A stretch of 64,000 nucleotides of DNA from Escherichia phage BB1. Position 1 is the first letter of the stretch. Each line of letters opens with the position of its first letter. Shown in pieces: positions 11,341-14,783 of the stretch. A program made the translations under genes and the position numbers. The notes under the pieces were generated by a model, which did no database searches, was not told where the DNA came from, and saw nothing but the letters and a program-made list of their open reading frames with translations. The stretch lies in the sequence record NC_106597.1. One strand, written 5' to 3'.

Positions 11341-12042
11341 TCAAATTTTCATTTTTTCGATCATAGCTGCAACACAATAGCTCTCAACTAAGGCATCAAA
11401 TGCTGGGTCGTGCTTAACCGGATAGATCCCATAACGAATGGTGTCCATCTTCTCCATTTTAGCTTTTGCCCAGCTAATACCCTCAGCCTCTAGATCTTTG
11501 TAACTATAACCAGCTTGCATCCAGAGATTACGAAGAGATCTAACATTGCCCAAATTCCAGAATTTCCACGGAACTACCTCTTCATTGGTTCCAGCATGGA
11601 ACGTGTTTGCAGAGTAGATAGTCATATCAAACTCTGGGCCATTGCCATAATACAGAGCATTTTCGCCTAGAGCCAACTCCATAATATTTTGAGCCATAGA
11701 GAAGGCAGCATAGTTTGAGCCAAATTTATTAGTGCAATGATGTTTACCATTTTGGAAGGCAATCAGTTTTGGATTACGCTCCTTCATAGCTTCCATAATG
11801 TGGATAGCAGACGGGCTATTTTTAGCTTGATCCATCCAGAATGCTAGAGTAGATGCTGTAACTTTGGCACCAGAATTAAGCTGATCCTGCACATCCAAAG
11901 TAACAAATACTAAGTCAGGGTCTTTATCAATCCCATGCATAGCCACAAAAGCGAAAGAAGGCATTGCGATATGAGTAGTACCACAATCTCCTGGAGTTCC
12001 CAGAGATTCAATATCTAGCATACCAAATGGTTTTACTTTCAT
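11341..12042 (-). CDS. DEDDh-type 3'-5' exonuclease (DnaQ-like fold)
   Basis: Exo motifs LDIES (D-x-E), FD, and H-x4-D (HDPAFDA); AAAGGATAAG RBS. Confidence 0.65.
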   Translation of the reverse strand: MKVKPFGMLDIESLGTPGDCGTTHIAMPSFAFVAMHGIDKDPDLVFVTLDVQDQLNSGAKVTASTLAFWMDQAKNSPSAIHIMEAMKERNPKLIAFQNGKHHCTNKFGSNYAAFSMAQNIMELALGENALYYGNGPEFDMTIYSANTFHAGTNEEVVPWKFWNLGNVRSLRNLWMQAGYSYKDLEAEGISWAKAKMEKMDTIRYGIYPVKHDPAFDALVESYCVAAMIEKMKI

Positions 12043-12070
12043 AACTTATCCTTTATTGTGTAGAAAACTA

Positions 12071-12307
12071 TTAAAGAGCTGTCTCTTTAATAGACTCCCA
12101 CTTCTTGGGGTCTTTAAAACCAGGAAGCATATCCTCACTGACATCCCAGTTTTCTTCCATAGAGAAGTCGGGCCATTCATTCCAGCTACCTTCCAGCTCT
12201 TCATAACAGGTGTCCATTACCTCATGACTAGAAAGTCGTGTATAATCTCTAGCGGACTTATGTGTGCTAGCACGGTTAAAATTGTTCTTTGCTACAAAAT
12301 TACGCAT
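12071..12307 (-). CDS. hypothetical protein (78 aa)
   Basis: ORF with GGAGAAAC RBS. Confidence 0.5.
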   Translation of the reverse strand: MRNFVAKNNFNRASTHKSARDYTRLSSHEVMDTCYEELEGSWNEWPDFSMEENWDVSEDMLPGFKDPKKWESIKETAL

Positions 12308-12319
12308 AGTTTCTCCAAA

Positions 12320-12341
12320 TAAGAGGGGCTTTCGCCCCCTG
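12320..12341 (-). terminator. intrinsic terminator-like hairpin (minus sense)
   Basis: gaggggc-tttc-gccccct hairpin with T-rich tract in minus sense. Confidence 0.5.
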
Positions 12342-12348
12342 ATTTAAA

Positions 12349-12564
12349 TCACTTGCCCAGCAGTTTAAGGATATTTTCCATAATAGTTTGGGCAGATTTT
12401 TCGCTCTTGTTGGTTTCAGCCAACTTTAAAGCGAGTTCTTCCTGCTGTTTCTGAATATCCGCAGCAATTTTTTGATCAGCCTCAATACGAGCTTGAAGCT
12501 CATCAGTGATAGTGGTAAAGGAAGCAACGATTTCAGTAACGGAACGTGGTTTCTTAGAGAACAT
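12349..12564 (-). CDS. hypothetical protein (71 aa)
   Basis: ORF with AAGGATA RBS. Confidence 0.5.
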   Translation of the reverse strand: MFSKKPRSVTEIVASFTTITDELQARIEADQKIAADIQKQQEELALKLAETNKSEKSAQTIMENILKLLGK

Positions 12565-12627
12565 AAAAGTATCCTTGATTAGTTAGAGAATTAGTAGATT
12601 GTAGGGGCTTCTGCCCCTATTTATCTA

Positions 12628-13143
12628 TTACTTCGCTTTACGCTTGCGAGCTGGTTTAGTAGATTTACGAGCAGAATCACCCGTGAACTTAATGCCTACA
12701 CCGTAACACAGAGCACGAACATTATCTTTACTATACTCTACGCCAAAGATATTTGGCTTAACAGAACCAAACTGTCCACGAGTATCACGCAATACATCTG
12801 CTGTTGGTTTACGCTTCTGGTTAACTGCCTTCTCATAGTCTTTCATAGACATACCATTACGAGAGAACAATTCAGCCCCAGCGTTGAAGCTCAGGGAAAC
12901 TGGGACAGATTTGTGGCCGTAATTTTCTACATACATAACCATTTTGTAGGATTTACGGGTGGCATTTTTAGCTTTAGGCTTCTGACGAATCGGAGCCGGA
13001 TTATTCAGTGCTTGCGCAGCCTGAGCATCGGTAGGATGCTTACGCAAGTGACGTTCCAGACGAGCTTTGCGATTAGCCTCAGTCTTCGGGAAAGTTTTAA
13101 CTGCCGGAGCTGCTTGAGTTTTTGCGTTTTTCTGCTTAGCCAT
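12628..13143 (-). CDS. hypothetical basic protein (171 aa; Lys/Arg-rich termini, possibly nucleic-acid binding)
   Basis: ORF with AAAGGAAAA RBS; composition only. Confidence 0.5.
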   Translation of the reverse strand: MAKQKNAKTQAAPAVKTFPKTEANRKARLERHLRKHPTDAQAAQALNNPAPIRQKPKAKNATRKSYKMVMYVENYGHKSVPVSLSFNAGAELFSRNGMSMKDYEKAVNQKRKPTADVLRDTRGQFGSVKPNIFGVEYSKDNVRALCYGVGIKFTGDSARKSTKPARKRKAK

Positions 13144-13181
13144 TATTTATTTTCCTTTTTGTTTATCAATTTATGAAGTAT

Positions 13182-13210
13182 ATTATACGAGAATTTGAAG
13201 CGTTTAGCAA
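13182..13210 (-). promoter_or_regulatory. early promoter (minus sense TTGCTA-17-TATAAT)
   Basis: attata 13182-13187, tagcaa 13205-13210. Confidence 0.6.
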
Positions 13211-13218
13211 ATGAATTT

Positions 13219-13668
13219 TTAATTTATTAACTGTAAGCTTCTTTTAATTTCAGACCTTACCTGCATCAAAAGAACTCCTAAAGTATTGTCCCCGATGCCT
13301 CGGCAAACACCCCAATATGTATCTCCCCAGGTATTTCCTTCGATCAAAGTTACATTTTTTGTTGCTAACAGTTTGTCTCTCAAATCAGGGATTGCAAACT
13401 TTAACCGTAAAAGCTCTAGCATTACATCATCTTTTACCTTATCCCAGTCAGAGCGTAGAGTTAATTTACGTCCTCTACGTTTGGCAACTCCTGCATTTAG
13501 GGAGCGTAGTACATGAGCTACATCATCTTTTTGGTCGGATTTCATAGCCTGAAAAGCATGTTCTACAGTATCAGCATGCCATATTTCATTTAGATATTCG
13601 AAAGTAATTGGTGATAAGTAAAAGTTAGATAAAAAACTATAAGTACCTTTAAATTCAGTAATCTTCAT
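13219..13668 (-). CDS. NADAR (YbiA-like) family protein
   Basis: Motifs YSFLSNFY and EHAFQAMK characteristic of the NADAR/DUF1768 family. Confidence 0.7.
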   Translation of the reverse strand: MKITEFKGTYSFLSNFYLSPITFEYLNEIWHADTVEHAFQAMKSDQKDDVAHVLRSLNAGVAKRRGRKLTLRSDWDKVKDDVMLELLRLKFAIPDLRDKLLATKNVTLIEGNTWGDTYWGVCRGIGDNTLGVLLMQVRSEIKRSLQLIN

Positions 13669-13949
13669 TTTTTACGCCCCGCATCTTTAGCCTCCTCGGC
13701 TGTATAGATATACTGATAAGCCCCTTTGGAGTAGGCTGGAGCAGTACACATTTTCTTACGCTCAATCTCTTCTTGAGCTTTTCTTTCGCGTTCCGCTAAT
13801 TCTTCGTCCAAATAAACTAAACGTTGTTCTGGAGGGGGTGGAAGACGTGTTTCTGGCTCGCCAATATTAGCCTTTCTTATTTGACGAGGTGATTGTGCAC
13901 GTTTTCTCAATGGTTTAAATCCTAATGAATTTGAGTTATAAATCCGCAT
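13665..13949 (-). CDS. hypothetical protein (94 aa)
   Basis: ORF with GAGGAGGG RBS. Confidence 0.5.
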   Translation of the reverse strand: MRIYNSNSLGFKPLRKRAQSPRQIRKANIGEPETRLPPPPEQRLVYLDEELAERERKAQEEIERKKMCTAPAYSKGAYQYIYTAEEAKDAGRKK

Positions 13950-13976
13950 AAAGCCCTCCTCACTTTCAATACGAAT

Positions 13977-14005
13977 ATTATACTAAATTAGAGGGCTTTA
14001 AGCAA
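13977..14005 (-). promoter_or_regulatory. early promoter (minus sense TTGCTT-17-TATAAT)
   Basis: attata 13977-13982, aagcaa 14000-14005. Confidence 0.6.
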
Positions 14006-14025
14006 GAAAATTTTTAATTTATTTA

Positions 14026-14502
14026 TCACATCTCAGCCATTTCAGCTTCAGTAATAACTGTATTACATAAGGCATCTACAGCTTCATTACCACTAATACC
14101 AGAGTGTCCTTTAACCTTAATAAAGGTAGGGTTAGTATTATGAAAGTTGATATACTGCTGTGTTAATTTAAATGCTTCCTGCCAAAGTTCTAGATTAAGA
14201 GGAACTTCACCATCTGCTTTCTTCCAGCCTTTCCTTTGCCAAGAAAACATCCAACTTTCCATACCATTTTTGCAGTAAGCAGAATCAGTATAGATAGCAA
14301 TTGGTCTATTATCTTTTTTAACAGACCAACGTAGAGCTTCTACAATAGCTGTGAGTTCCATCTCATTATTTGTAGTTTTAGGATTATAGCCAGATTTAGA
14401 ACCTAAACGATCGTCGTTATCATCATAGACAATAAAACCCCAAGCACCTGGACCTGGGTTAGACTTACAAGCACCATCTGTGTAAATGTGGAAAACCGAC
14501 AT
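14026..14502 (-). CDS. rnhA: ribonuclease H
   Basis: RNase H catalytic motifs (YTDGA, EMELTA, YTDSAY, HSG...NE..D); start set at MSVFHIY with GGGAGG RBS. Confidence 0.85.
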   Translation of the reverse strand: MSVFHIYTDGACKSNPGPGAWGFIVYDDNDDRLGSKSGYNPKTTNNEMELTAIVEALRWSVKKDNRPIAIYTDSAYCKNGMESWMFSWQRKGWKKADGEVPLNLELWQEAFKLTQQYINFHNTNPTFIKVKGHSGISGNEAVDALCNTVITEAEMAEM

Positions 14503-14783
14503 TATACCTCCCAACTAATTTTAAGACCCATATCTACAAAGGCGGCTTCTCTGTAGTATTGTGAGAGATGATACCCCTTATCCGATAAGGTTTTTAGTAC
14601 CGATTTAGCGGCTCCTGGCATTTCTCTAGGATTATATAGCCACCTAGCGTAAGGATTATCTCGAATAATTACTTCTGTATTTCCAGACTTAGCAGCTTCT
14701 ACAATCTTTTCTTCTATAAACTTTAGAAATGCGGGTACTTCTGTTAACCCTGCAAGTTCTTGGGCTTCTTTGGCTGAAATCAT
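14502..14783 (-). CDS. hypothetical protein (93 aa)
   Basis: ORF with GGAGGT RBS; stop overlaps rnh start (TAATG). Confidence 0.5.
   Translation of the reverse strand: MISAKEAQELAGLTEVPAFLKFIEEKIVEAAKSGNTEVIIRDNPYARWLYNPREMPGAAKSVLKTLSDKGYHLSQYYREAAFVDMGLKISWEV

Follow-up and report, generated by a model that had tools for sequence, protein, structure and literature searches.

The window analyzed here is a 64,000-nt stretch of Escherichia phage BB1 (NC_106597.1), to which all coordinates refer. An adfN-type gene occupies positions 13219..13668 on the minus strand, running from an ATG to a TAA stop codon (13219-13221) and encoding a protein of 149 aa, hereafter designated BB1 NADAR. The initial annotation had recognized a NADAR/YbiA signature in this product, and the ORF with exactly these limits indeed carries both motifs quoted then, YSFLSNFY at residues 10-17 and EHAFQAMK at residues 36-43. 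The reading frame is intact and the catalytic residues are all kept. The G+C content of the gene is 36.0%, against 39.2% for the 64-kb window, a value that is uninformative as to a foreign origin by composition.

The ATG of the NADAR gene overlaps by 4 nt (ATGA) the TGA of an upstream gene of 94 aa located at 13665..13949 on the minus strand. This upstream gene, which matches phrog_4593 at 183 bits, is the ortholog of T5.090. Owing to the ATGA overlap, both genes are read as forming one transcription unit, and the sequence indicates that they are probably translationally coupled. A putative sigma-70 promoter of this unit lies at 13977..14005 on the minus strand, with a -35 box TTGCTT (14005-14000) separated by a 17-nt spacer from a -10 box TATAAT (13982-13977). 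Its layout is aaattaaaaattttc-TTGCTT-17 nt-TATAAT, with an A/T-rich tract upstream, and the region is identical at 82 of 83 bases to the promoter that the T5 reference places between rnh and T5.090. A generic promoter scan missed it because TTGCTT fits TTGACA at only three of six positions; it was recovered by inspection of the sequence and its alignment with the promoters annotated in T5.

A second promoter, at 13182..13210 on the minus strand, begins 9 nt past the NADAR stop codon. It consists of TTGCTA, 17 nt and TATAAT (10/12 in the promoter scan) and is nearly identical to "promoter P-H 207" as annotated in T5, between T5.090 and T5.089. P-H207 counts among the classical strong early promoters of T5. 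As far as the sequence allows it to be placed, the BB1 ortholog of P-H207 is the promoter driving the following DUF7022 gene and delimits the NADAR cassette on its 3' side. The hairpin scan returned no terminator-like site 3' of the NADAR gene. The latter is predicted to be the second cistron of the two-gene early unit served by the rnh-proximal promoter, inserted just before P-H207. The description "between early promoters" given in the initial annotation was therefore apt, as the two-gene unit is flanked by near-identical copies of two promoters annotated in T5, one of which is P-H207.

The DUF7022 gene (12628-13143, minus strand; phrog_4516) encodes a full-length DUF7022 protein (256.6 bits); its product is lysine/arginine-rich at both ends and is conserved in every T5-like phage examined. 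Two other neighbors that had been named from the sequence were confirmed by profile matches, i.e., an RNase H gene (rnh) at 14026-14514 (PF00075, 112 bits) and a gene for an Rv2179c-like DEDDh-type 3'-5' exonuclease at 11341-12042 (PF16473), the T5 counterpart of which is labelled "exonuclease". The wider neighborhood includes genes for RNase H, thymidylate synthase and DHFR (rnh/thy/frd/nrdB), along with genes of unknown function. A 71-aa ORF (12349-12564) is flanked by two terminator-like G+C-rich hairpins, at 12324-12339 on the minus strand and at 12601-12620 on the plus strand, which are the sole strong ones in an otherwise promoter-dense stretch. The 94-aa gene was considered as a NADAR-specific partner and rejected in this role, since it also occurs in T5, chee24, Bas31 and saus176N, all of which are devoid of NADAR.

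The assignment of BB1 NADAR to its family was borne out by a profile search. Residues 9-142 match the Pfam NADAR profile PF08719 (DUF1768), spanning profile positions 9-163 of 163, with an E-value of 1.6e-21 and a score of 77.7 bits; compared with the gathering cutoff of 35.1, this score places the match far beyond chance. The AlphaFold2 model, built from a 45-homolog alignment, reaches a pLDDT of 97.2 and a pTM of 0.91. When this model was compared with the PDB using Foldseek, just two structures were retrieved with an E-value below 0.001, namely 2b3w (E. coli YbiA, TM 0.82) and 8bau (Phytophthora nicotianae NADAR in complex with ADP-ribose, TM 0.78). The predicted structure displays the YbiA-like fold, in which an alpha-helical core is associated with small flanking sheets.

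The active site of the family has been delineated in the Phytophthora enzyme (PnNADAR), in which K50, R79, W89, R93, W133, and D130 contact the pyrophosphate of ADP-ribose while E43 and E125 contact the distal ribose (Schuller et al. 2023, PMC11543638). Among these ADP-ribose contacts, E43, K50, E125, D130, and W133 are required for catalysis, and mutants of the E. coli C7 antitoxin at E88, K95, or D171 have their function abolished (PMC11543638). In a HMMER alignment, corrected for the two-residue numbering offset of the PDB chain, the PnNADAR residues K50, R79, W89, R93, W133, D130, E43, and E125 correspond to K43, R67, W75, K79, W119, D116, E36, and E110 of BB1 NADAR, respectively. The Glu and Lys that are conserved in NADAR catalytic sites (E43/K50 in Phytophthora, E88/K95 in E. 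coli C7, E36/K43 in T4) are thus found as E36 and K43 in the BB1 protein. Three residues, E36, K43, and D116, are common to BB1 NADAR, its Bas32 counterpart, YbiA, T4 gp30.3, and PnNADAR in a nine-sequence alignment, and the invariant columns of the 45-homolog alignment include L13, S14, N15, E36, K43, E110, N112, W114, D116, and W119. The loss of catalytic residues, named in the initial annotation as a way in which its proposal could fail, is not observed, E36, K43, E110, D116, and W119 being all present.

One position defines NADAR subfamilies, as it is occupied by Glu in the YbiA and "NADAR" families, by Asp in DarG1 (BC4488), and by His in the T4-type proteins (PMC11543638, PMC11125620). 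This residue is a Glu (E110) in BB1 NADAR and a His in T4 gp30.3. From its sequence, the BB1 protein is classified as a Glu-type NADAR and is set apart from both DarG1 (Asp) and T4 AdfN (His).

Comparison with known NADARs locates the BB1 protein more precisely. E. coli YbiA (2B3W; "swarming motility protein") is its closest solved structure, with 35-40% identity, and both proteins are made of the bare YbiA core without extensions and with a Glu-type active site. They differ in their genetic setting, the ybiA gene belonging to a LexA-controlled host operon (PMC11125620) whereas the BB1 gene is part of a phage early unit. PnNADAR, with the same fold, shares 26% identity with BB1 NADAR; it carries N-terminal and internal extensions, and its R93 is replaced by K79 in BB1, whereas its E43, K50, R79, W89, E125, D130, and W133 align with identical residues.

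DarG1 proteins (BC4488 family; E. coli C7, Geobacter lovleyi) hydrolyze guanine-N2-ADP-ribose on DNA (PMC11543638). They share with BB1 NADAR the Glu and Lys residues (E88 and K95 in C7) and what would be a type-IV logic, in which the modification is reversed rather than the toxin bound. Nevertheless, DarG1 proteins are about 230 aa long with an N-terminal extension of the YbiA fold, whereas BB1 NADAR has 149 aa and a domain starting at residue 9 or earlier; likewise, the catalytic Asp of DarG1 (D171 in C7) is replaced by Glu110, as in YbiA and PnNADAR. No ART or DarT gene lies beside the BB1 gene, the neighbors of which are the phrog_4593 and DUF7022 genes, and the PADLOC DarG models do not match the protein. 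Membership of the DarG1 family was rejected on these four grounds, namely the Glu in place of Asp, the missing N-terminal extension, the lack of a neighboring DarT, and the negative PADLOC search for DarG. By analogy, BB1 NADAR is considered to work like DarG1 without belonging to its family.

The T4 protein AdfN-T4 (gp30.3), an anti-DarTG1 factor resembling an orphan antitoxin, is specific for guanine-ADPr and has no effect on DarTG2 (PMC11825919). It shares with BB1 NADAR the NADAR fold and the Glu and Lys residues, even at the same numbering (E36, K43), but the two sequences are 24% identical, and AdfN-T4 displays a His ("LKH") in place of E110 as well as an insertion before the equivalent of W75. 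BB1 NADAR was consequently not retained as a member of the gp30.3 family, given its Glu instead of His and the 24% identity. The published phylogeny indicates that T4-type and Bas32-type NADARs were acquired independently, with several acquisitions by phages, and DELTA-BLAST was needed to link both groups (PMC11825919). They also differ in behavior, as AdfN-T4 is fully effective only during infection by T-even phages, and DarT1 is detoxified in uninfected cells by the Bas32-type protein but not by AdfN-T4 (PMC11825919).

Models built on the defense side gave sub-threshold matches. The sole PADLOC match of BB1 NADAR is a weak one to PDC-M42C (26.6 bits), and for NCBIfam NF053876, "DS32_2 NADAR family anti-phage protein", the cutoff is 240 and the score only 44.5 bits, so that BB1 NADAR is not a member of it. 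NADAR domains are evidently in use by hosts and phages alike.

The closest characterized relative was found by a tblastn search of BB1 NADAR against 50,697 phage records. At least 95% protein identity was obtained for 94 phage records, including Escherichia phage IrisVonRoten at 98%. The locus tags of IrisVonRoten read bas32_00xx, which identifies it as the BASEL phage Bas32. Its counterpart of BB1 NADAR, bas32_0066 (YP_013435443.1), is a 149-aa protein annotated "hypothetical protein" that aligns with BB1 NADAR without gaps and with 146 of 149 identical residues. The BB1 protein has T9 instead of A, K104 instead of E, and V106 instead of A, all three in variable columns of the 45-homolog alignment, none of which is invariant or nearly so. 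The NADAR of Bas33 is identical to that of Bas32. Both host phages, BB1 and Bas32, belong to the subfamily Markadamsvirinae and share the same gene order, with rnh, the 94-aa gene, NADAR, a P-H207-type promoter, and DUF7022; the alignment is base for base across the genes on either side and across the two bordering promoters. Judging from identity and context, BB1 NADAR is the gene of Bas32 in a sister phage, a case of orthology and not of paralogy.

The protein bas32_0066 has been named AdfN-Bas32 by Johannesman et al. 2025 (Nat Commun, PMC11825919). Expressed from a plasmid, it neutralizes DarT1 toxicity in uninfected E. coli and allows the DarTG1-sensitive phages RB69, T5, and Bas25 to regain full-titre plaquing on DarTG1 cells, while the plaquing of T5 on DarTG2 cells is unchanged (PMC11825919). 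The same study groups AdfN-Bas32 with archaeal-type NADARs, outside the housekeeping YbiA clade. A deletion in Bas32, the native resistance of Bas32 and Bas33 to DarTG1, and a purified Bas32 enzyme are absent from the main text of both versions of this article, and no deletion of an adfN-Bas32-type gene in a T5-like phage is reported in the main texts. A later preprint and a 2026 paper take phage NADARs as established anti-DarTG1 factors. Identity and synteny with AdfN-Bas32 thus make BB1 NADAR the ortholog of an experimentally characterized anti-DarTG1 factor.

The initial annotation had proposed an anti-DarTG role through the reversal of DarT-type guanine ADP-ribosylation. This proposal holds for DarTG1, which targets guanine, by way of the syntenic and 146/149-identical AdfN-Bas32, and not for DarTG2, which targets thymidine and on which AdfN-Bas32 has no effect; "anti-DarTG" should consequently read "anti-DarTG1". 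The idea of a counter-defense is not new, as it was published in 2024-2025 for the very ortholog group of BB1 NADAR.

BB1 NADAR, as the ortholog of AdfN-Bas32, very probably reverses the guanine ADP-ribosylation of phage DNA by DarT1 and serves as a counter-defense against DarTG1. The protein would be an orphan-antitoxin-like NADAR whose gene, the second cistron after that of 94 aa, is read from a strong promoter of the T5 type. Upon infection of a DarTG1 host, DarT1 would attach ADP-ribose to the N2 amino group of guanine in phage DNA and replication would be blocked. NADAR would then bind the ADP-ribose moiety and hydrolyze the ribose-guanine bond, giving back unmodified DNA on which replication could go on. 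From the residue mapping, the pyrophosphate is predicted to be contacted by K43, R67, W75, K79, W119, and D116, and the distal ribose to be flanked by E36 and E110. As the enzyme acts on the product and not on the toxin, neither a contact with DarT1 nor other phage factors would be needed. Thymidine modification by DarTG2 would be left untouched.

The BB1 allele, with T9, K104, and V106, is expected to behave like AdfN-Bas32, and the chemistry of AdfN-type proteins should be the guanine-N2 de-ADP-ribosylation measured for other NADARs. BB1 would need its NADAR gene on DarTG1 hosts. Activity in vitro is not a guarantee of protection in vivo. Indeed, E. coli YbiA and T4 gp30.3 both hydrolyze G-ADPr yet do not relieve the toxicity of DarT1 in uninfected cells (PMC11125620), and YbiA differs in this respect from the Bas32 ortholog (PMC11825919). 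For this reason, what is proposed for BB1 relies on the 98%-identical ortholog and not on the fold alone.

The NADAR gene is irregularly distributed among the relatives of BB1. Both the 2.1-kb locus and the initial 25 kb of the window are 97-98% identical at the nucleotide level to Escherichia and Salmonella T5-like phages, i.e., Demerecviridae of the subfamily Markadamsvirinae, mostly Tequintavirus, with no identical record. The locus is matched by about 440 phage records, about 90-94 of which include NADAR; in another class of records, the alignment is split in two and spans about 1,475 nt rather than 1,921 nt. In chee24, Bas31 (DaisyDussoix), saus176N, and T5, a 92-aa gene is directly followed by P-H207 and DUF7022, without NADAR. 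The NADAR gene is accordingly described, from these alignments, as a presence/absence cassette among T5-like phages. Since it is kept by only about one fifth of them, it appears dispensable on most hosts. The T5 reference genome is devoid of it, and T5 is reported to be strongly restricted by DarTG1, which fits the anti-DarTG1 assignment.

The homology with NADAR-less phages breaks at the NADAR stop (about 13220) and resumes at about 13735, within the 3' end of the upstream gene. The product of the latter has 94 aa in BB1 and 92 aa in NADAR-less phages; 85 of 92 residues are identical between BB1 and chee24, all seven differences falling within the last 19 residues. This break and this clustering of differences indicate that the variable unit consists of the NADAR ORF together with the 3' tail of the upstream gene in a variant form. 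A recombinational exchange between lineages would fit such a cassette better than a simple insertion.

A related arrangement occurs in the Salmonella phage vB_SenS_UTK0009 (Epseptimavirus, NC_111487.1), which encodes a 149-aa NADAR 59% identical to that of BB1. Its gene (2489-2938 in the extracted locus) occupies the slot delimited by rnh and the 92-aa phrog_4593 gene; this slot corresponds to positions 13950-14025 of BB1 and is located one slot upstream of the NADAR of BB1 and Bas32. This organization suggests a second, independent insertion in this early-gene neighborhood. Two short records of "Listeria phage LM 4-14-1" (OR848833.1 and OR848534.1, 3.5 and 5.3 kb) are about 95% identical to the locus at the nucleotide level; these contigs probably stem from mis-assignment or contamination and not from a genuine Listeria phage.

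Other functions have to be weighed against the reversal of DarT1 modification. The main target might be another ADP-ribose-linked defense, either cytidine-ADPr or RNA-ADPr deposited by other ARTs (ScARP/pierisin-like, YarT) or an NADase effector (Retron-Eco1) countered by non-catalytic binding of ADP-ribose, the anti-DarTG1 effect being then one facet or a side activity. Retron-Eco1 is a defense that restricts T5. The inhibition of Retron-Eco1 by a phage NADAR is ascribed to Carabias et al. 2024, as cited by Johannesman et al. (PMC11825919). All Glu-type NADARs tested, from the NADAR and YbiA families, remove both G-ADPr and C-ADPr, on DNA and on RNA, the activity of the enzymes with Asp (DarG1) or His (T4) being limited to G-ADPr (PMC12945103), and BB1 NADAR is of the Glu type (E110). 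Moreover, a YbiA-type NADAR is the antitoxin of YarT, an ART distinct from DarT (PMC11125620). However, the ortholog restores full-titre plaquing on DarTG1 cells without the help of other phage factors, in keeping with a primary function, and another main target is deemed improbable.

A housekeeping role is still harder to sustain and is judged very improbable. According to it, BB1 NADAR would be an N-glycosidase of the YbiA kind that destroys reactive intermediates of riboflavin biosynthesis, carried by the phage as an auxiliary metabolic gene. The public names "N-glycosidase", "GTP cyclohydrolase II", and "ribA/ribD-fused protein" refer to this activity. It draws on E. coli YbiA being the best match among solved structures (35-40% identity), on the presence in BB1 NADAR of the Glu that defines the YbiA subfamily, on a match to TIGR02464 with an E-value of 4.9e-18, and on the riboflavin-related names borne by several metagenome homologs and phage records. 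The same TIGR02464 model, an equivalog for YbiA/COG3236, nevertheless gives 65.9 bits, under the curated NCBI cutoff of 73.7, and neither ribA/ribD nor any other riboflavin gene is fused or adjacent to the gene, the product of which is a stand-alone protein of 149 aa. A riboflavin N-glycosidase identity was rejected on these two points. Furthermore, the 98%-identical ortholog shows an anti-DarTG1 phenotype and is placed with archaeal-type NADARs and not in the YbiA clade (PMC11825919), and a fast lytic phage would have no evident need to police riboflavin intermediates. Finally, a decaying or inert passenger without current function in BB1, as the absence of the gene from about four fifths of T5-like genomes, T5 included, might evoke, has next to no likelihood in view of the intact frame, the complete catalytic residues, the coupling to an upstream gene behind a strong promoter, the 94 phage records with a protein at least 95% identical, the 235-member cluster of homologs, and the activity of the ortholog AdfN-Bas32 (PMC11825919).

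Beyond the reversal of DarT1 modification, the AdfN of T5-like phages could be a counter-measure against several defenses, although this extension is tentative and thought rather unlikely. As AdfN is of the Glu type, in contrast to DarG1 (Asp) and T4 AdfN (His), it may be a broader eraser, by analogy also removing cytidine-linked and RNA-linked ADP-ribose, and perhaps, through ADP-ribose binding, an inhibitor of an NADase defense such as Retron-Eco1. If so, the NADAR insertions in two adjacent slots, in BB1 and UTK0009, would mark an anti-defense hot spot.

Public annotations across the 11341-14514 block are inconsistent and mostly inherited. Thus, the 94-aa gene is labelled "DksA C4-type domain-containing protein", the DUF7022 gene "virion structural protein", the 71-aa ORF "tail length tape-measure protein", and the DEDDh exonuclease "metallopeptidase". 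NADARs themselves appear as "swarming motility protein" (YbiA), "GTP cyclohydrolase II", "DUF1768", "hypothetical", "glycosylase", "N-glycosidase", or "ribA/ribD-fused protein", which are inherited names and not evidence. Such mislabelled records merit re-annotation as AdfN / NADAR ADP-ribosylglycohydrolase.

The ortholog group of BB1 NADAR has been named and tested in earlier work, and what remains is incremental. The recognition of a genuine counter-defense gene from the raw sequence agrees with the experimental paper of 2025. For the phage itself, the gene predicts that BB1, unlike T5, would form plaques on Escherichia or Salmonella hosts carrying DarTG1, a prediction of modest practical value that bears on the host range of therapeutic T5-like phages.
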